Assembly (NCBI RefSeq): GCF_000009965.1
Contig: NC_006624.1
Span: 210,001-242,000, forward strand
Length of the DNA stretch: 32,000 nt
Direction: 5' to 3'
DNA from: Thermococcus kodakarensis KOD1
GTDB taxonomy: Archaea; Methanobacteriota_B; Thermococci; Thermococcales; Thermococcaceae
In this document: piece after piece, positions 1,232 through 17,802 of the stretch
How the letters are laid out: every line of letters starts with the position of its first letter
How positions within the stretch are numbered: position 1 is the stretch's first letter
Program-made: the position numbers and the translations under genes
Notes under the pieces: generated by a model
What the model saw: the letters and a program-made list of their open reading frames with translations, nothing else
What the model was told of the DNA's origin: nothing
The model's database searches: none

Positions 1232-1264
1232 TGGACACCTCAGCATGTCCAAAGCCTTATATCC
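1232..1264 (+). promoter_or_regulatory. trp operon promoter: perfect Tar operator followed by a TATA box
   Basis: TGGACA (1232-1237), cctcagca, TGTCCA (1246-1251), aagcc, TTATATcc (1257-1264). This lies about 40 nt upstream of the trpC ATG. Confidence 0.8.
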
Positions 1265-1295: not shown

Positions 1296-1331
1296 ATGGG
1301 TGATGGTTTTTGGATTAAGCAGGGCTATTAG
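1296..1331 (+). other. Candidate 11-codon leader ORF MGDGFWIKQGY* overlapping the trpC start out of frame
   Basis: GGTGAG (1285-1290) sits 5 nt before ATG 1296. ATG GGT GAT GGT TTT TGG ATT AAG CAG GGC TAT TAG. It is the first AUG after the predicted TSS. Confidence 0.3.
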
Positions 1332-6599: not shown

Positions 6600-7347
6600 G
6601 AAGGGCTCGCTGATTCCCTATCTCACGGCCGGCGACCCGAGTGTCGAAAAGACCCTTGAGTTTTTACTAGCGGTCGAAGAGTTCGCCGGTCTAATAGAGC
6701 TCGGAATCCCCTTCAGCGACCCGATGGCGGACGGGAAGACGATCCAGGAGTCCCACTACCGCGCCCTGAGGAACGGCTTCAAACTCGATGATACCTTCAG
6801 GATCCTCCGCGAGTTCAGGAGGCACTCCTCTACCCCAGTAATTCTGATGACCTACTACAACCCGGTTTTCAGGACGGGCGTTAAGAAGTTCCTCGGAGAG
6901 GCTAAGGCCAGCGGGGCCGACGGGATCCTCGTGGTTGACCTTCCTGTGAGCCATGCAGGGGAATTCCTCGATGCGGCCAAGGAAGAGGGGCTAAAGACAG
7001 TATTTCTTGCAGCCCCAAACACTCCCGATGAAAGGCTTAGGGAGATAGATAAAGCCTCTACCGGCTTCGTCTACCTTATCTCCCTGTACGGGACCACTGG
7101 AGCCCGCGACAGACTTCCCGAGACGGCTTTCGAGTTCGTGAGGCGCGCCAGAAAGATATGCAACAACAAGCTGGCAGTCGGCTTCGGTGTTTCGAGGAGG
7201 GAGCAGGTGGAGGAGCTTTTGAAGGCTGGAGCCGACGGGGTTGTCGTTGGAAGCGCGCTTATAGAGCTAATATCCCGCAGTGAGAACCCCGTGGAGGAGC
7301 TGAGGAGAAAGGTGGCGGAGCTCTCGGGCTACTCCAGAGCTCTGTAG
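6592..7347 (+). CDS. trpA: Tryptophan synthase alpha chain
   Basis: 251 aa with [14 protein letters not shown] and GFGVS motifs. 8-nt overlap with trpB. Confidence 0.95.
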
Positions 7348-8099
7348 AACCTTTCGTAGGCCTCTTCTATTTCTTCCCATTCCAGTTTTTCCCTGAGTCT
7401 CTCCGGGTCCGGCGGGTTTTTCCTCATGAAGTCTAGGAACTCCTCTATCTGCTCCCTGGACATGCTGAGGACTTCCCTTATGAAATCGGGAGAATCGTGG
7501 AGCACCGCCTTTCCGTAGGTCTCCAGGAAGGCCCAGGAGGTTCCGCCAAACTCCTCCAGTCCGAGCTCCCTGGAGAGCGAGAGGTAGCTTAATCCGATGA
7601 AGTAGGGGACGCCTATGACGAAGCCCATGAGCCTGTCGTGGGTCTTCCAGTCGAGGAAGGACACGTTCCCCCCGATGGAGCGTATAAAGTCGGCGACTTC
7701 CTCCGCATCCTTCTCCCTTCCTGGAATGGGGACCGTTATGAACCTCTTCCCCTCGATGGTCTTCGCCCCGGGCCCGAACATCGGGTGAACGCTCGCAACT
7801 CTTGTTTCCTCGCCAAAGCCCGCGTAGGCTTCAACAACGCGGGACTTGAAAGTGGCTATGTCGAAGACGATCTTTTTCCCGCCGTGCTCCCTCGATATTT
7901 CCGCGAGCCTCTCCAGCCTTTTCGGGACAGTGTCGAGGGATGAGGCTACCATTATCACGTCCGACTTCAGGTAGAGTTCCTCCAGCGATCCAACGTCGCT
8001 CCGCCCGTGTTCGGAGTAGAAGATCACCTCGAACCTTCCGCCGAGACACCTCTCGAAGAGCCTTCCCATCCTTCCGTAGCCCGCGATTCCAATGCGCAT
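7329..8099 (-). CDS. tyrA: Prephenate dehydrogenase
   Basis: 256 aa with N-terminal Rossmann MRIGIAGYGRMG. Last gene of the CM-aminotransferase-tyrA unit. Its 3' end overlaps the trpA 3' end by 19 nt. Confidence 0.85.
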   Translation of the reverse strand: MRIGIAGYGRMGRLFERCLGGRFEVIFYSEHGRSDVGSLEELYLKSDVIMVASSLDTVPKRLERLAEISREHGGKKIVFDIATFKSRVVEAYAGFGEETRVASVHPMFGPGAKTIEGKRFITVPIPGREKDAEEVADFIRSIGGNVSFLDWKTHDRLMGFVIGVPYFIGLSYLSLSRELGLEEFGGTSWAFLETYGKAVLHDSPDFIREVLSMSREQIEEFLDFMRKNPPDPERLREKLEWEEIEEAYERFYRALE

Positions 8100-9118
8100 T
8101 CCAACTCCTCCCTAATGACCCTTAATCCCCTCTCAAGCCCCTTCCCTGAGAGGGATATCCTTATGAAGTTGGGGTAGTCGCCAAAGGCCATTCCTGGAAA
8201 AACGGCAACTCCCCTTGAGAGCAGCCTCTCGGCGAAGGCCATCCCGTCCTGGGGCGTTCTGAGGAAGATGTAGAAAGCTCCCTCCGGCTCAACGAAGTCG
8301 AAACCCCTGAGCATCTTTGAGGCCATCCTGACCCTCTCAAGGTATGCCCTCCTGACTTCTTTGATGAGTTCATCCCTGAGTTCGAGTGCCTTTACTCCAG
8401 CCCTCTGAACGAAGGGAGGGACACATGTTACCGTGCTCTCTATGAACCTCTGTATCCTCCTGATCTCGTTCCGCTCTCCTATTGCGTAGCCGAGCCTGAA
8501 GCCGGTCATGGAGTAGAGCTTTGAAAAGCCCTTAACTGTAACGACGTTTTCGTAGAGCTCTCTCGCTGGCGTAAAGCGGGTGAAGCTGAGCTCAGCGTAA
8601 ACCTCGTCCGAGAGCACCTTAACACCGTTCTCCTCGGCGACATCGAGCAGTCCCCTGATCTCCTTACCAGACAGAACCCTCCCCGTCGGGTTGTTGGGGT
8701 AGTTGATTATGATGAGGTCAGCTTTTATCTCCTCAACCCTCGGAATCCACCTCTCATCCAGGGTCGTTTTTATAACCTCTACCTCCCTCCAGAACTGGCG
8801 GGCTATCAGCGAATAGGCGTTCCAGCGGGGAGAAACGACGGCCACTTTTTTAGCAGACGCTATCTCCGCCGCTATGAGGATCTTCGCACCTGGGGCGACG
8901 ATGACTTCATCGGCCGAAACCCCCTCGAACTCGGCTATCCTCTCCCTCAGCTCCCTTATTCCGCCGGTACTCGTGTAACCGGTTTCTCCCCTCCTGAGCG
9001 ACTCTACAGCCTCCTCGATTATCTCCCTCCTGACCGGTATGTCCGGCTGACCGGCGTCGAGCCTCGACTCAGGCCTAACCTCATTTATCCTGTTGAAAAA
9101 CTCGTAAACGTTGAACAT
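8024..9118 (-). CDS. Class-I PLP aminotransferase, probable aromatic/aspartate aminotransferase
   Basis: 364 aa with NYPNNPTG and the PLP lysine in GFSKLYSMTGFRLGY. It sits between chorismate mutase and tyrA. Confidence 0.9.
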   Translation of the reverse strand: MFNVYEFFNRINEVRPESRLDAGQPDIPVRREIIEEAVESLRRGETGYTSTGGIRELRERIAEFEGVSADEVIVAPGAKILIAAEIASAKKVAVVSPRWNAYSLIARQFWREVEVIKTTLDERWIPRVEEIKADLIIINYPNNPTGRVLSGKEIRGLLDVAEENGVKVLSDEVYAELSFTRFTPARELYENVVTVKGFSKLYSMTGFRLGYAIGERNEIRRIQRFIESTVTCVPPFVQRAGVKALELRDELIKEVRRAYLERVRMASKMLRGFDFVEPEGAFYIFLRTPQDGMAFAERLLSRGVAVFPGMAFGDYPNFIRISLSGKGLERGLRVIREELECALESRATEGWEGSSRGVSAEGSR

Positions 9119-9359
9119 CCCTGCTCACCTCAAGGATGGCTTCGAAAACCCTCCTAAATTCGCCTGCCCTGGATAGAACTTCTCTCTCCCTGTCCGGGTC
9201 GTAAACTGGCATTTCGAGCTTTAGCTTGGCTTCCCCTATGGCCTTTGCTACTTCCATCCTCCTCTGGAGAAGCTGGAGAATTTCCCGGTCAATCTCGTCT
9301 ATCCTTCTCCTCAGAATGGCAAGTTCTACAAGATCAGGACTCGATATTGGCGGGACATC
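9081..9359 (-). CDS. AroQ-type chorismate mutase, not in the ORF track and lacking an in-frame ATG/GTG/TTG before the catalytic helix
   Basis: My own translation of the - strand: (GDVPP)ISSPDLVELAILRRRIDEIDREILQLLQRRMEVAKAIGEAKLKLEMPVYDPDREREVLSRAGEFRRVFEAILEVSRDVQRLRVFQQDK*. This is the LRxxIDxIDxxIL signature. The first canonical in-frame start is ATG 9257, giving only 58 aa. The 5' boundary is uncertain. Confidence 0.8.
   Translation of the reverse strand, partial: DVPPISSPDLVELAILRRRIDEIDREILQLLQRRMEVAKAIGEAKLKLEMPVYDPDREREVLSRAGEFRRVFEAILEVSRDVQRLRVFQQDK
9326..9358 (-). other. Candidate 10-codon leader ORF MSRQYRVLIL* out of frame with chorismate mutase
   Basis: GGTGACGGTG precedes ATG 9358. 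ATG TCC CGC CAA TAT CGA GTC CTG ATC TTG TAG. It is the first AUG after the predicted TSS. Confidence 0.3.
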
Positions 9360-9362
9360 ACC
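9346..9362 (-). repeat. Copy of the 17-nt module GGTGATGTCCCGCCAAT
   Basis: Exact match to the copies at 17688-17704 and 17724-17740. With GGTGAC upstream, the similarity to the copy at 17724 extends to about 23 nt. Confidence 0.9.
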
Positions 9363-9390
9363 GTCACCGTTTTGAGCTTGAAGTTCGAAG

Positions 9391-9421
9391 ATTTAACCTT
9401 TTGGACAGGTTCACCTAACCA
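9391..9421 (-). promoter_or_regulatory. Internal tyr-phe promoter: Tar operator plus TATA, overlapping the aroC 3' end
   Basis: The - strand reads TGGTTA-ggtgaacc-TGTCCA-aaagg-TTAAAT. One half-site is perfect and the other matches 4/6, with the same layout as the trp promoter. It overlaps the aroC stop codon (9411-9413). Confidence 0.65.
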
Positions 9422-13928: not shown

Positions 13929-14907
13929 CCCTCGTTGCCTCCAGGGCCCTTTTCAAAACAGCCTCATCGACTTCCTCAACGACGACATCGCCTATTTCAA
14001 CCGGGATGACGAAGGTTATCCTCCCGTACCAGGCCTTCTTGTCGAGCCTCATCTCCTCCAGTATCTCCTCCGCCCTAAAGGGGTGCCCCGTGGGGAGCCC
14101 GAGCTTCTTCAGGAGCTCTTCGGTCTTTCCAGAATCGAAGCCGTAGAGCTCTTCCCCGACCTTCGAGGCCACCATGAGTCCCATCGAAACCGCAAGCCCG
14201 TGCTTTATTCTGTAATTCGACAGCTTCTCGATCGCGTGTCCGGCTGTATGCCCGAGGTTGAGTATCCTCCTCAGCCCGCTCTCCCCCAGGTCCTTCTCAA
14301 CTACCTCCACCTTGAAGAGGGCGCATTCCCTGATGAGGGTCTCGCTTATCCCTTCAAAGTTCCTGGCGAGGGCGTAGACCTTCCTGTCGAGCAGAGCATA
14401 CTTTGCAACTTCCCCAAGGCCGTTCCTTATCTCCTCCTCTGGGAGCGTGGAGAGGGTTTCATGGGCTATCAGGACGAAGTTTGGAAGGTAAAACGTCCCT
14501 ATCATGTTCTTCCCGTTGAAGTTCACCCCTGTCTTGCCCCCTATGGCCGCGTCCACCTGGGCCAAAAGCGTCGTTGGGACGAGGCCGAGGAGGGTTCCCC
14601 TCATGTAGGTCGAGGCCACGAAGCCCGCTATGTCTGTCACGACTCCCCCACCGAGGCCTATAAGGAGGGACTTCCTCGTGAAGCCCTCCTCCTGGAGCCT
14701 CTTCCAGATGGCTACGGCAGTCTCAAGGCTCTTGTACTTCTCGCCGTCTGGGATGACTATCCTTATCGGCTCCTCTATCCCTTCGGCGGCCTTTTCAAGC
14801 CAGAGCCTCTCCACCGTCGTGTTCGTCAGAAAGGCGACTCTGTGGGGGTTGAGCTCCTCCGCGAGGGAGGGAAGGATGGAGAGGGGGCCGAAGCTCAGGC
14901 CCTCCAT
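13882..14907 (-). CDS. aroB: 3-dehydroquinate synthase
   Basis: DHQS motifs [11 protein letters not shown] and GHT.GHA. The track ORF starts at 15027, but codon usage there is poor, so ATG 14907 (MEGLSFG, 341 aa) is preferred. It overlaps the DAHPS stop by 13 nt. Confidence 0.9.
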
Positions 14908-15809
14908 CCGAGCCCCCCCAGCTCCATGAGGAAGACCTCGGTGTACCAGTCGTTCTCCTCGACCCTCTCCGAGAGCACGTACCTCGGAACGCCCTCTGCG
15001 GCCTCTCTCGATGTTGTCCCTTTCCATCCGAGCCCTTCAAGCTCCCCCAAAAGCCTCTCGAAGTCCTCGAAGGTCAGCTGCTGGGCAGAGTCCGAGAGGG
15101 CCTTATCCGGCTCGGGGTGAACCTCGACCATTATCCCGTCGGCCCCGACTGCATAAGCCGCTTTTGCCAGGGGTATCACGAGCTCCCTCCTGCCCGCTGG
15201 ATGCGAGGGGTCAACTATTATCGGCAGGTGTGAGAGCTCCTTGACGACTGGGACGGCCGAGATGTCCAGGGTGAACCTTGTGGAGGTTTCGAAGGTTCTT
15301 ATGCCCCTCTCGCAGAGGATAACGTTCTCGTTGCCCCCGCTTAGTATGTACTCGGCCGAGTAGAGGAGCTCCTGGACGGTGTTTGCCATGCCCCTCTTCA
15401 GAACCACGGGGTTGTCGACCTTTCCCACTGCCTTAAGCAGCTCGAAGTTCTGGGAGTTCCTGGCGCCGATCTGGAGCATGTCGGAGTACTTCGCAACCAG
15501 CTCCACCTGCGAAACGTCCATAACTTCCGTAACGGTTACGAGGCCGTATTCATCGGCTGCTCTCCTCATCCACTTCAGGGCCTCTTCCCCGTGCCCCTGG
15601 AAGGAGTATGGACTCGTCCTCGGCTTGAAAGCCCCTCCGCGGAGCACTTTAACGCCCATCTCGGCCAGGAACTCTGCAACCTTCATTATTTGCTCCTGGC
15701 TCTCCACCGCGCAGGGACCTGCTATTACCGTGAATCCGTCGCCGATTTTAACCCCTCCGACCTTAACGACAGTTTTCGGCTTGGAGCCCTTCTCGAATTT
15801 GAACCTCAT
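14895..15809 (-). CDS. DAHP synthase, class I-beta (KDO8PS-like), with about 40-aa C-terminal extension
   Basis: 304 aa with [18 protein letters not shown] and DPSH motifs. The tail [40 protein letters not shown] has strong G/C third-position bias, so it looks coding. Confidence 0.9.
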
Positions 15810-16726: not shown

Positions 16727-17382
16727 ACTTCCCACCTCGCTATGATGACCTTCGGCCTTCCCCCGAGTTTTTTGGCCGTTTCGAGGGCCTTCTTGAGCTC
16801 CTCCTTCCTGTTGGGAACCCCCATAACCTCCCAGCCGAAGGCCCTCCACTTGTCCGCCAGCGGTTCCTTGCTCAGTATCTCCTCTGTTCCTCCCGTGAGC
16901 TGGAAGTAGTTCCTGTCGACTATCGCTATCACTCTATCGAGCCTGTGGTGCGATGCTGTCATAGCAGCTTCCCAGACCTGGCCCTCGTCCAGCTCGCCGT
17001 CGCCGAGAATGACGTAAACGTATCCCTCTTCCCCGTCCATACGCTTGGCCATCGCTATACCGTTGGCCACCGAGAGTCCCTGGCCGAGGGAACCGCTGGA
17101 GACCTCTATGAAGGGCAGCCCCCTGATTACGTGGCTCGGGAGGCCGTCTATGTCCGCGAAGCTGTAGAGCTCCTCGTCGCTGAGAAGACCCATTTCGTGG
17201 AGCATCACGTAGAAAGCTGGAGCCGAGTGGCCTTTGCTGAGTATTACGACGTCTTTCTCTCCCTTCTCCTCGAGCACTGCTGAGAGAATTTCGAGGCAGG
17301 TCTCCGAGGACTCGAGGTGGAAGTTGTTGACGGGCTGGAGCATGCTCTGGAGCTTTGTCCTCGGATCGAGGGCCTCACTCAT
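16723..17382 (-). CDS. Transketolase, N-terminal (TPP-binding) subunit
   Basis: 219 aa with SKGH, GSLGQGLS and GDGELDEG TPP-binding motifs. Confidence 0.88.
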   Translation of the reverse strand: MSEALDPRTKLQSMLQPVNNFHLESSETCLEILSAVLEEKGEKDVVILSKGHSAPAFYVMLHEMGLLSDEELYSFADIDGLPSHVIRGLPFIEVSSGSLGQGLSVANGIAMAKRMDGEEGYVYVILGDGELDEGQVWEAAMTASHHRLDRVIAIVDRNYFQLTGGTEEILSKEPLADKWRAFGWEVMGVPNRKEELKKALETAKKLGGRPKVIIARWEV

Positions 17383-17689
17383 GGCCGTCCACCTCCAGAA
17401 GGCTGAGAATCATTCTCCCGTGCTCGGTAAGCCTAACGGGCCTGGGGTTTTCCTTAGTGCCGTAGTCTATGAGCCCGAGTTCCTTCAGAATTCTGGCGTT
17501 CAGCTTCAGCGTCGAGAGGGCTTTTCTTTCCTTTCTGCTGAGCTCCTCAAGGAGAGAATTCAGGGAGCGGTGTCTGCCGCTTATGCTCCTCAGTATCAGT
17601 CTCTGGTTCTCGTTCAAAGCCCTCAGAACGAGCTTCCTGATTACCTCTTCCCCGCCGGGGGTTACTAATATTGGCGGGGCATCACCCAT
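17375..17689 (-). CDS. tar: Small winged-helix transcriptional regulator, Tar-like aromatic amino acid activator
   Basis: Predicted wHTH core (EEVIRKLVLRALNENQRLILRSI...LKELGLIDY). First gene of the aro unit, with an 8-nt overlap on the transketolase gene. The track start (TTG 17767) lies 4 nt from the TATA box and so cannot be used. ATG 17689 (MGDAPPILV, 104 aa) is preferred. GTG 17746 is an alternative if the mRNA is leaderless. Confidence 0.75.
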   Translation of the reverse strand: MGDAPPILVTPGGEEVIRKLVLRALNENQRLILRSISGRHRSLNSLLEELSRKERKALSTLKLNARILKELGLIDYGTKENPRPVRLTEHGRMILSLLEVDGHE

Positions 17690-17736
17690 TGGCGGGACAT
17701 CACCTGGTTTGAAGACTTCATAAATTGGCGGGACAT
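17665..17736 (-). other. Candidate 23-codon leader ORF MSRQFMKSSNQVMSRQWVMPRQY*
   Basis: GGTGATCGGTG precedes ATG 17736. This frame runs through all three 17-nt modules. TTT, TGG and TAT each follow one module, and the ORF stops at TAG 17667-17665. Confidence 0.3.
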
Positions 17737-17740
17737 CACC
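17670..17740 (-). repeat. Three copies of the 17-nt module GGTGATGTCCCGCCAAT, with starts 18 and 36 nt apart
   Basis: Copies at 17724-17740 and 17688-17704 are exact. The copy at 17670-17686 has one mismatch (GGTGATGCCCCGCCAAT). Confidence 0.92.
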
Positions 17741-17770
17741 GATCACCGGAGACGGATGAATCAGCAACCC

Positions 17771-17802
17771 TATTTAAACTATTCGCCAGGTTTGCCTGTC
17801 CA
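17771..17802 (-). promoter_or_regulatory. aro/regulator promoter: Tar operator plus TATA
   Basis: The - strand reads TGGACA-ggcaaacc-TGGCGA-atag-TTTAAATA. One half-site is perfect and the other matches 4/6. The TATA box is consensus-like at 17771-17778. Confidence 0.7.

Follow-up and report, generated by a model that had tools for sequence, protein, structure and literature searches.

The window analyzed in this study is a stretch of 32,000 nucleotides from the genome of Thermococcus kodakarensis KOD1 (NC_006624.1, positions 210,001 to 242,000), in which three operons of aromatic amino acid biosynthesis, aro, tyr-phe and trp, are located. Our subject is a 17-nt module repeated at the 5' end of the aro mRNA, together with the short leader open reading frame (ORF) that runs through it and overlaps the first gene of the operon, TK0271, named Tar by Yamamoto et al. 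(2019, mBio; PMC6737238). With 210000 added, the coordinates of the window ORFs agree exactly, base for base, with TK0260 (genome 218024-219118), TK0262 (219411-220478), TK0270 (226723-227382), TK0271 (227375-227689) and TK0272 of strain KOD1. In window positions, the aro leader is organized as follows.

17783-17802, minus strand: Tar box of the aro promoter, TGGACAGGCAAACCTGGCGA, with two mismatches to TGGACA-N8-TGTCCA
17771-17778, minus strand: TATA box of the aro promoter, TTTAAATA, with the mapped transcription start site (TSS) 24 nt downstream
17747, minus strand: primary TSS of the aro/Tar mRNA, from differential RNA sequencing (dRNA-seq; Jaeger 2014, TTS0227747_-, PMC4247193 supplementary file 2)
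17665-17736, minus strand: aro leader ORF, MSRQFMKSSNQVMSRQWVMPRQY and stop TAG; a second stop, TAA, at 17664-17662
17724-17740, minus strand: module copy 1, GGTGATGTCCCGCCAAT, exact; the Tar-frame codon ATT (17725-17723) overlaps the Phe codon
17688-17704, minus strand: module copy 2, exact; CAA-TGG overlaps the annotated Tar start ATG (17689-17687)
17670-17686, minus strand: module copy 3, one mismatch, equal to Tar codons 2-7 (GDAPPI); the Tar-frame ATA (17671-17669) overlaps the Tyr codon
17724-17722, 17688-17686 and 17670-17668, minus strand: aromatic codons of the leader, Phe TTT, Trp TGG and Tyr TAT, respectively
17650-17680, minus strand: predicted 7-bp stem of CCCCGCC (17680-17674) with GGCGGGG (17656-17650), weakly supported and not universal
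17375-17689, minus strand: Tar (TK0271), first gene of the aro operon, in frame -1 relative to the leader ORF

The published TSS of TK0271 (genome 227747) is situated 7 nt ahead of module copy 1. A first-pass annotation, made from the bare sequence, had expected the transcript to begin near this copy because of the TATA box at 17778-17771, and had held a start downstream of 17700 against its own proposal; the mapped site, 17747, lies upstream of that point. The mRNA begins with GGUGAUC, which places a Shine-Dalgarno (SD) sequence at +1 and the leader ATG at +12, and the initial six bases of the transcript (GGUGAUCGGUGAUG) match the ribosome-binding-site consensus GGDGRD. At up to three mismatches, 0.08 matches to the 17-mer are expected by chance, and four were reached in none of 100 shuffles; a repeat search returned the identical three aro copies, spaced by 36 and 18 nt. 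The three copies described by the first-pass annotation, two exact and one with a single mismatch, are thus real. Its reading of the ORF from ATG 17736, with exactly one Phe, one Trp and one Tyr codon, is reproduced by our translation, and the overlap of TGG with the regulator start agrees with the annotated start of TK0271.

Two further observations concern the same transcript. A GTG (17746-17744, minus strand) one base from the mRNA 5' end is in frame with Tar in T. kodakarensis and in three related loci (L001-L003); gene callers use it, which results in Tar versions of 121-123 aa (MIGDVPPIY...), and it is unconserved outside this group. In the dRNA-seq data, reads of TK0271 exceed those of TK0270 about tenfold in the Pexp and PS libraries and not in library C, a ratio that is uninformative on premature termination.

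Leader ORFs of the same kind were found at the two other promoters of the window that carry a Tar box.

9402-9421, minus strand: Tar box of the tyr-phe promoter, TGGTTAGGTGAACCTGTCCA, two mismatches
9391-9396, minus strand: TATA box TTAAAT of the tyr-phe promoter; primary TSS 9368, mRNA 5' end GGUGAC
9346-9362, minus strand: fourth exact 17-mer copy, covering +7 to +23 of the tyr-phe mRNA
9326-9358, minus strand: tyr-phe leader ORF, MSRQYRVLIL and stop; Tyr codon TAT at 9346-9344
1232-1251, plus strand: Tar box of the trp promoter, no mismatch
1257-1262, plus strand: TATA box TTATAT of the trp promoter; primary TSS 1285, mRNA 5' end GGUGA
1296-1331, plus strand: trp leader ORF, MGDGFWIKQGY and stop; Phe 1308-1310, Trp 1311-1313, Tyr 1326-1328, with a T5 run at 1307-1311

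Neither the fourth copy nor the trp leader had been part of the first-pass annotation. The tyr-phe mRNA begins with GGUGACGGUGAUG (TSS of TK0261). The trp leader comprises 11 codons with one Phe, one Trp and one Tyr, and overlaps the trpC start (ATG 1303), trpC being in the +1 frame. At all three promoters the Tar box lies 4-5 nt ahead of the TATA box, and the leader ATGs are found at +12 (aro), +11 (tyr-phe) and +12 (trp), each 5-6 nt past GGTGA and hence within the range of 3-7 nt that separates SD and start in 15 window genes. The ATN codons of the modules, including the annotated Tar ATG, follow their SD at 10 nt in the GGTGA register. Since the stretch between TATA box and module is unrelated in sequence between the aro and tyr-phe promoters, the module itself is kept selectively. 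The aromatic content of the three leaders would arise by chance with a probability of about 4e-5 given the codon usage of the window, or about 1e-4 from base composition only. For tyr-phe and trp, the dRNA-seq table also lists antisense or divergent TSSs in the TATA region, at 9398 (plus strand) and 1267 (minus strand), respectively, which suggests that these two Tar-activated promoters initiate bidirectionally.

The three leader ORFs sit on exactly the three promoters with a TGGACA-N8-TGTCCA box. Tar activates these promoters, and its footprints cover the palindrome upstream of the TATA box; lack of any one of Trp, Tyr and Phe induces all three operons (PMC6737238). DNA binding by Tar is insensitive to the three amino acids, while an effect of erythrose-4-phosphate was seen in vitro, and how the cell recognizes the lack of a single aromatic amino acid was called unknown by the authors (PMC6737238). 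Their study covers the same locus, but treats Tar as a DNA-binding activator only and makes no mention of a leader ORF.

For a comparison within the Thermococcales we collected about 20 Tar loci by a genome scan with a Tar alignment, by look-ups of named isolates, and from one metagenome contig. The genome scan mostly returned distant winged helix-turn-helix proteins (of Bathyarchaeia and others); its useful loci are L001-L011. The Tar homologue is the first gene of the aro operon and the gene order is kept in relatives. In each of the loci, as in T. kodakarensis, GGTGA follows the TATA box at 19-24 nt and the module comes next. The aro leader ORFs of the relatives read as follows.

L001: MSRQFTRPSNQVMSRQWVMPRQY
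L002: MSRQFTRSSNQVMSRQWVMPHQY
L003: MSRQFTKFLSQVMPCQWMIPRHYHQVLAGEM
L004: MSSQFMEYKPVKSRQWVMPNQY
T. chitonophagus: MPRQFTQSKVMPRQWVMPCQYL
T. litoralis-like: MSCQWVMTRQYL
T. gammatolerans: MSRLGRSSNQVMPHQYW
Pyrococcus NA2: MCGDKKVMPYQWKILL
P. abyssi-like: MRGEFKVMPYQWKILE, single module
Eight group-B loci (barophilus/sibiricus-like): M(VM)[PS][RC]QY, 0-1 further codon and stop, single module

Three elements are invariant across these loci: GGTGATG, C-CAA-T, and the fact that an aromatic codon follows. The middle six bases of the module drift (TCCCGC, CCCTGC, CAACGC, CCTTCC, TCCAGT, CCGAAC, CCCTAC, ACTCGC), and this alters both frames. In the P. abyssi-like leader a Tyr codon has been gained where an Arg codon stood, and a Phe codon has been gained upstream. 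The codon after CAA, where it begins with T, is aromatic in all of the approximately 33 cases from real leaders, compared with 24% in 118 unrelated matches of a loose metagenome pattern, described below, which we reused as a null for the codon after CCAA. Read in the Tar frame, the module is GGT GAT xxx xxx CCA ATN; no variation is seen at the third base of the Gly, Asp and Pro codons, while the middle residue varies.

Codon choice reveals the same pattern. Among the genes of the T. kodakarensis window, Gln is encoded by CAA once and by CAG 57 times, Tyr by TAT 12 and TAC 144 times, and Phe by TTT 52 and TTC 186 times. The leaders use CAA before every aromatic codon of a module, and TAT and TTT for Tyr and Phe; this choice of CAA, TAT and TTT creates an AUN in the -1 frame. 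Module conservation and codon choice together indicate that the selected bases are the SD, the ATG, C-CAA, and the aromatic triplet, bases one and two of which fill up the -1-frame ATN. The alignment of orthologous leaders proposed by the first-pass annotation turned out in its favor, as ORF and aromatic codons are conserved in Thermococcus and Pyrococcus and the intervening nucleotides drift; none of the computational tests able to contradict its central reading, a translated leader ORF whose aromatic codons reflect the pathway products, did so.

In two Pyrococcus loci the context has been lost. P. horikoshii-like (L205:9984-10040) and P. kukulkanii (L207:9949-10040) no longer possess the aro operon and keep an orphan Tar with an ABC transporter directly after it. 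The third module of P. kukulkanii is decayed. Tar of P. horikoshii is without a promoter of its own, and the module begins 1-2 nt past the stop of the preceding lysK-like gene.

Compared between operons, the codon content of the leaders, as read from their predicted ORFs, matches the product of the operon that follows, which bears out the view of the first-pass annotation that the Phe, Trp and Tyr codons name the end products of the pathway; the other two Tar operons carry aromatic leaders as well.

Operons of aro genes only (product chorismate), T. kodakarensis group, T. chitonophagus and P. abyssi-like: Phe, Trp and Tyr codons
Combined Tar, aro, chorismate mutase, aminotransferase and prephenate dehydrogenase operon, group B: Tyr only
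Separate chorismate mutase, aminotransferase and prephenate dehydrogenase operon, T. kodakarensis, L001, L002 (MVMQRQYP and stop) and L004 (MVMPSQYRRMMNRS and stop): Tyr only
Operon of the same three genes, T. gammatolerans (MVMFR and stop): Phe only, an exception
trp operons, six leaders: Phe-Trp in six of six, with an invariant T5 run before TGG in six of six
trp leaders: MGDGFWIKQGY, MTGDGFWPEQGY, MGGDFWTEQENKEVH and MGDGFWIKQGNKNL, each followed by a stop
trp leaders with GTG start: (GTG)GGDFWVK and (GTG)SGDGFWIEQDD, each followed by a stop

The trp leaders use the minor codons GTT or ATT, plus TTT, every time. In T. gammatolerans, the chorismate mutase gene (L083:18124-18200, plus strand) has been called with a GTG start that lies inside the Tar box, upstream of the TATA box. 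The real start is likely the ATG that overlaps the stop of the 5-codon leader MVMFR (TAATG).

Several of the genes behind the leaders have no canonical start codon. In the group-B loci L005, L006, L008, L009 and L171, the Tar frame has not a single ATG, GTG or TTG from the presumed TSS to the conserved core; starting at the first transcribed base, it reads GGT GAT GGT GAT GCC CCG CCA ATA TCT and onward. The chorismate mutase genes of T. kodakarensis, L001 and L002 likewise contain no ATG, GTG or TTG in frame after the TSS. Each of these gene frames is -1 relative to the leader ORF and runs through CCA-ATA. For T. kodakarensis the frame can be delimited as follows.

9081-9347, minus strand: reading frame required for chorismate mutase, beginning at ATA 9347 or at an earlier codon

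The annotated TK0261 comprises 58 aa (9081-9257, from ATG 9257), and no ATG, GTG or TTG occurs in frame from there back to the TSS at 9368. Pfam CM_2 aligns with the extended frame from profile position 1 onward (E = 2.4e-19), but with the annotated protein no earlier than position 20, so that a complete domain calls for about 20 additional residues. Because positions 1-19 of the profile are matched by the extended frame only, the first helix of the chorismate mutase is encoded upstream of the annotated ATG. TK0261 is either mis-annotated or started in a non-canonical manner. According to a review of archaeal initiation, start codons are AUG, GUG and UUG only (PMC7531240).

Beyond the Tar context, metagenomes were scanned with the pattern GGTGAN{1,8}GGTGATGNNNNNCCAAT. 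The pattern is loose: at least three relevant contigs (L120, L171 and L201) stood against about 117 unrelated ones among the matches listed. In L120 and L201 the module is located behind an archaeal TATA box and without a Tar box. The leader of L120 (GC 51%; reverse-strand positions about 7170-7430, plus-strand positions 7088-7348) reads MQRQYLLPLGQIPAGWMVMSRQF and stop, contains two modules and has Tyr, Trp and Phe once each; its second module plus TTT is identical to T. kodakarensis over 19 nt. It precedes genes of aspartokinase, aspartate-semialdehyde dehydrogenase, a DeoC-type aldolase and 3-dehydroquinate synthase II, a set that we take to be the enzymes of the alternative entry into aromatic biosynthesis via 6-deoxy-5-ketofructose 1-phosphate (DKFP). 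The closest named relatives of its 3-dehydroquinate synthase II are proteins from metagenome-assembled genomes (MAGs) of Jordarchaeales and Freyarchaeota, with 78-79% identity. Related MAG contigs (L213-L218) show only a degenerate version, ATG CAG CTC CAA TAT GGC TTT, overlapping an ORF of 149 aa; this -1-frame ORF of the Jordarchaeales-like contigs gave no Pfam match.

L201 is an AT-rich archaeal contig (GC 36%). Here (6717-6880, plus strand) a TATA box is followed by GGTGAGATGGTGATGTCCTGCCAATTTTAA with the leader MVMSCQF and stop, and this Phe-codon leader lies about 150 nt ahead of the gene for phenylalanyl-tRNA synthetase alpha (pheS), whose ORF contains a probable 1-nt assembly error. 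In both contigs the -1 frame is open over a long stretch, 71 codons in L120 (P of about 0.04) and 49 in L201 (P of about 0.03), and ends 20 nt past the aspartokinase start and 4 nt before the pheS ATG, respectively. Occurrence of the module before both an Asgard-like DKFP aro operon and pheS suggests a widespread device.

The repeats, the mapped TSSs, the ORFs with their conserved aromatic codons, the agreement of codons with pathway, the absent canonical starts and the frame relations are observations. From these patterns we infer that the leader ORFs are translated, that ribosomes would pause in them, and that the reading frame may change there. The leader ORFs are probably sensors of aromatic tRNA charging. 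Their output could possibly be a frame switch into the first gene at a hungry codon. The best explanation overall, which we favor tentatively, is that the 17-nt module is the working unit of 5'-terminal leader ORFs on the aro, tyr-phe and (as a variant) trp mRNAs, whose translation reports charged tRNA-Phe, tRNA-Trp and tRNA-Tyr by way of such a switch.

The proposed course of events is this. GGUGA at +1 would act as SD, and the AUG 10-11 nt downstream would open an ORF of 10-23 codons. In it, an aromatic codon comes after the rare Gln codon CAA, and this position coincides, with an offset of one base, with the start of the first gene (AUG, AUA or UUG) or with its frame. With ample aromatic aminoacyl-tRNA the ribosome would finish the leader ORF and terminate a few codons on. 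With the cognate tRNA scarce, it would pause while the P site holds CAA and the A site the aromatic codon; the peptidyl-tRNA could then slip by -1 (C-CAA to CCA-A), so that AUU, AUG or AUA would be read instead and translation would carry on in the Tar or chorismate mutase frame. In the trp leader, a +1 slip of tRNA-Phe on the U5 run, which invariably precedes UGG, would lead into the trpC frame. The predicted trans-frame N-termini are MSRQ|IYEVFKPGDVPPMGDAPPILVTPGGEEVIR, ...MSRQ-MGDAPPILV and ...MPRQ|ILVTPGGEEVIR for Tar, MSRQ-ISSPDLVELAILR for chorismate mutase, and MGDGF-GLSR for TrpC. As the Phe, Trp and Tyr modules of the T. kodakarensis aro leader are all in the Tar frame, lack of any single one of these amino acids would raise Tar, and hence the three operons.

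An SD-like GGTGAT is placed 7 nt before CAA in every module; GGUGA is then 8 nt before the P-site codon, a distance longer than the initiation spacing. In the trp leaders GGTGAT precedes TTT by 3 nt in four of six cases. A prfB-like spacing of SD and UUU was considered for the trp leader and not used, as the anti-SD register gives a normal initiation spacing. The slip from UUU to UUU on the U5 run permits perfect re-pairing, that from CAA to CCA re-pairing at two of three positions. A frame switch would account at once for the sign of the regulation, the startless genes, the invariant CAA with its preceding C, the fixed SD-like element, the open -1 frames, and the physiology.

A number of points weigh against this explanation, in part or as a whole. 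tRNA-Gln re-pairs at only two of three positions after the -1 slip, and the site is not a classical X XXY YYZ. Aromatic codons also occur outside the C-CAA context (Phe and Tyr in the P. abyssi-like leader, Trp in L120), and the Trp codon is in part a by-product of ATG followed by G. The approximately 33 modules share ancestry, and their aromatic codons are therefore not independent events. In the trp leaders, the TrpC residues M-V/I-F-G dictate part of the Phe-Trp conservation. Tar has a regular ATG or TTG start in many species, and each of the six trpC genes begins with ATG or GTG, so a frame shift is not obligatory. The T. gammatolerans chorismate mutase leader carries Phe and not Tyr, and together with its UAAUG stop-start overlap this speaks more for reinitiation than for a shift. 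Each of L120 and L201 is a lone metagenomic contig, and the scan behind them required the module but no aromatic pathway context. Ribosome profiling of T. kodakarensis was not found in the literature searched.

Part of this evidence also applies to leaders that are translated aromatic sensors without any recoding, a solution we consider rather unlikely. A stalled ribosome would then act by freeing or blocking a start site, by reinitiation, by protection from a 5'-3' exonuclease, or through transcription coupling and factor-dependent termination; coupled transcription-translation and polarity have both been described in T. kodakarensis. All of the conservation and codon-content evidence fits, as do the UAAUG overlap of leader and chorismate mutase in T. 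gammatolerans, the bridging frame of L201 that ends just before the pheS ATG, and the aromatic codons outside the C-CAA context. However, a ribosome stalled at the Trp or Tyr codon sits on the Tar start, the only possible one in single-module genomes; occlusion or reinitiation therefore predicts less Tar on starvation, which is the wrong sign for an activator. The startless first genes, the invariant rare CAA, and the long open -1 frames of L120 and L201 are left unexplained as well.

It is improbable that the module is an initiation region, consisting of the SD GGUGAU, a 9-nt spacer and an AUN start, with group-B Tar and chorismate mutase started at AUA and the leader ORF as a by-product. Every ATN codon shares the frame of the first gene, many species have their annotated Tar ATG at the homologous position, and the startless genes have ATA exactly there; moreover, after ATA-N or ATT-N half of the possible next bases yield an aromatic codon. 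Such initiation would give Met-initiated N-termini, MGDAPPILV... or M-SSPDLVELAILR, and Met-Ser-Ser-Pro... for group-B Tar and chorismate mutase. Of the graded ATN starts that the first-pass annotation had offered as an alternative, the shared frame stands, but the distance of 10 nt between SD and ATN lies outside the 3-7 nt of the 15 window genes. AUA and AUU are not among the archaeal starts of the review cited above, and this alternative leaves unexplained the conserved ATG inside GGTGATG, the extra Phe and Tyr codons of the P. abyssi-like leader, the trp leader, and the match of codons and pathway. Besides, the base after ATA or ATT is always T, though the encoded residue varies (Leu, Ser, Phe, Tyr).

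Even less probable is that a protein or a small RNA binds the module, whether in the DNA, where it would be an operator at +8 to +24, or in the mRNA, and thereby forms a second layer of control on Tar promoters. Nucleotide identity of four copies in one genome and the position of the module at the start of the transcribed region in two promoters are compatible with it, and copies 1, 2 and 4 contain TGTCC, which resembles the Tar half-site. TGTCC is, however, the least conserved part of the module between genomes (variants TGCCC, TGCAA, TGCCT and TGCCA), and its assignment as a half-site was rejected for this reason. The conserved parts, GGTGATG, CCAAT and the aromatic triplet, are what the translation machinery reads; the trp leader is devoid of the CGCCAAT part and yet keeps an aromatic ORF; and Tar footprints lie on the palindrome upstream of the TATA box (PMC6737238). 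The DNA-binding site considered in the first-pass annotation is also made unlikely by the presence of the same module without a Tar box in other archaea.

We give very little credence to the view that the repeats represent a recent neutral duplication, or that Tar and chorismate mutase have a functional peptide repeat, GD[VA]PP[IM], at the N-terminus. Many annotated Tar homologues begin with MGDAxPI, the copies share the frame of Tar and chorismate mutase, and MDGDVPPILV...EE is found in the same frame of L120. Fixed third positions of GGT, GAT and CCA next to a free middle residue (Pro, Leu, Thr, Phe, Gln, Glu, Ala, Ser) are nevertheless the opposite of what selection on the protein would leave. 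At the P. abyssi-like and NA2 loci, a stop codon shuts the Tar frame a few codons ahead of its ATG, yet the leader ORF continues upstream, and the module occurs ahead of unrelated genes (chorismate mutase, aspartokinase, pheS). The duplication is old, being common to Thermococcus and the T. chitonophagus lineage. Accordingly, of the options raised by the first-pass annotation, nucleotide-level constraint is upheld and very recent duplication is not.

A transcription attenuator of bacterial type, in which the ribosome position would select between alternative hairpins of the CCCGCC copies with GGCGGGG, one of them halting RNA polymerase, is hardly credible, because its assets (one predicted 7-bp GC stem of copy 3, three alternative CCCGCC partners, and a local GC hairpin 7-9 nt past the Tyr codon in several relatives) are outweighed by a leader stability that does not exceed dinucleotide shuffles (z = +1.47, -0.51 and -0.50 for the three leaders, folded at 37 C for an organism growing at about 85 C), by the lack of an oligo-T tract after the stem, by the absence of GGCGGGG from the group-B, tyr-phe and trp leaders, and by the location of the stem inside the Tar coding region (PGG codons). 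The stem is also missing in single-module genomes. Of the pairing postulated in the first-pass annotation, CCCCGCC with GGCGGGG does occur in the predicted fold; an attenuator built on alternative pairings does not follow from it. No Rfam family reached its gathering score anywhere in the 32 kb, and a structured RNA, riboswitch or attenuator was rejected on the basis of this result and of the folds.

Leader-peptide attenuation of amino acid operons is well known in bacteria, with trpL, pheL of pheA, pheM of pheST, and hisL as examples. [quoted passage not shown] The Phe-codon leader before pheS in L201 resembles the arrangement of E. coli pheST. In contrast to bacterial attenuators, they contain single aromatic codons and no runs, they are without terminator or antiterminator hairpins and without a U-run, and in the Thermococcales the leader ORF overlaps the start or frame of Tar, chorismate mutase and TrpC, being separate only in L120 and L201. 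A further difference is that one leader joins three amino acids and controls the transcriptional activator of the pathway itself, in the setting of an archaeal transcription machinery. Since alternative hairpins with a U-run and a separate leader are both absent, we do not regard these leaders as members of the bacterial attenuator family.

Frameshifting at hungry codons is reportedly known from the work of Gallant and Lindsley, and SD-stimulated programmed frameshifts are established for E. coli prfB (+1), whose rate depends on the supply of RF2, and dnaX (-1). A frame switch in the archaeal leaders would have in common with these sites an internal SD-like element at a fixed upstream distance and a slow A-site codon; with prfB and dnaX, it would share a re-pairable P-site codon (UUU on U5 in the trp leader) and a shifted frame that encodes a useful product. 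As with prfB and RF2, the rate would follow the supply of the factor that reads the A-site codon. Unlike in prfB and dnaX, the slow codon is a sense codon for an end product of the pathway, the putative -1 site C-CAA-UNN is no canonical slippery heptamer, and no downstream pseudoknot is present. Metabolite-sensing control in eukaryotes is exemplified by the +1 frameshift of antizyme (polyamines) and by the upstream ORFs (uORFs) of GCN4/ATF4 (eIF2 phosphorylation). There, too, a short upstream or overlapping frame sets the amount of a pathway regulator by the level of a pathway product; the signals differ, the ribosome scans, and no sequence relation exists.

To our knowledge, amino acid sensing by ribosomes on leader ORFs, a textbook mechanism of bacteria, is unestablished in Archaea. 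The leader ORFs would thus be the first ribosome-based amino acid sensor proposed in this domain, and could explain the induction of all operons by shortage of a single aromatic amino acid. A leader with one codon per amino acid, positioned over the start of the activator itself, offers a concrete answer to the question of Tar sensing, in a host that is genetically tractable. That the Thermococcales and at least one Asgard-like lineage sense aromatic amino acids by a starvation-triggered ribosomal frame switch is conceivable, though we regard this wider statement as doubtful. If true, Tar or the first enzyme would be translated only after a slip, in some genomes from a gene without its own start codon, and hungry-codon frameshifting would here serve regulation; the leaders would be the first in Archaea to sense amino acids, and would supply the input so far missing from the Tar regulon. 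A frame switch would also explain the apparently startless TK0261 and group-B Tar genes, and would constitute a new regulatory class of recoding.

The first-pass annotation had been aware of no leader-peptide control of archaeal aromatic operons, and we found no prior description in the literature searched for archaeal leader peptides, uORFs, hungry-codon frameshifting, and leader ORFs for TK0271 or archaeal aromatic operons. The T. kodakarensis transcriptome paper states that attenuators are without direct in vivo support in Archaea. A 2021 review of archaeal recoding does not list such a case and mentions neither Thermococcus nor Pyrococcus (PMC8211752).

Short ORFs were also observed ahead of other amino acid operons. 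At the his operon of T. gammatolerans (L083:5986-6130, minus strand), a TATA box (CCTTATTAAGTA) is followed by a short ORF, MIPASPTPSTLLLPLSDSCHHPF and stop, which has two adjacent His codons and stops about 20 nt short of the SD of the first his gene. It may be a histidine leader ORF, and the principle may extend beyond aromatic operons. Leaders of LysW lysine operons (L081:985-1060, L084:1265-1320 and L206:1290-1345) have GGTGGTG(A/C)NTATTAAG in common, just before the homocitrate synthase start; that of T. chitonophagus contains an overlapping ORF, MPRRVVSIKRQR..., rich in Arg and Lys codons. Within the window, the ORF of 3-deoxy-D-arabino-heptulosonate 7-phosphate (DAHP) synthase (304 aa) has a C-terminus about 40 residues longer than its relatives of 262-265 aa and overlaps the upstream-most start of the 3-dehydroquinate synthase ORF by 133 nt (14895-15027, minus strand); for this C-terminal extension, Yamamoto et al. 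speculated on a role in feedback inhibition (PMC6737238).

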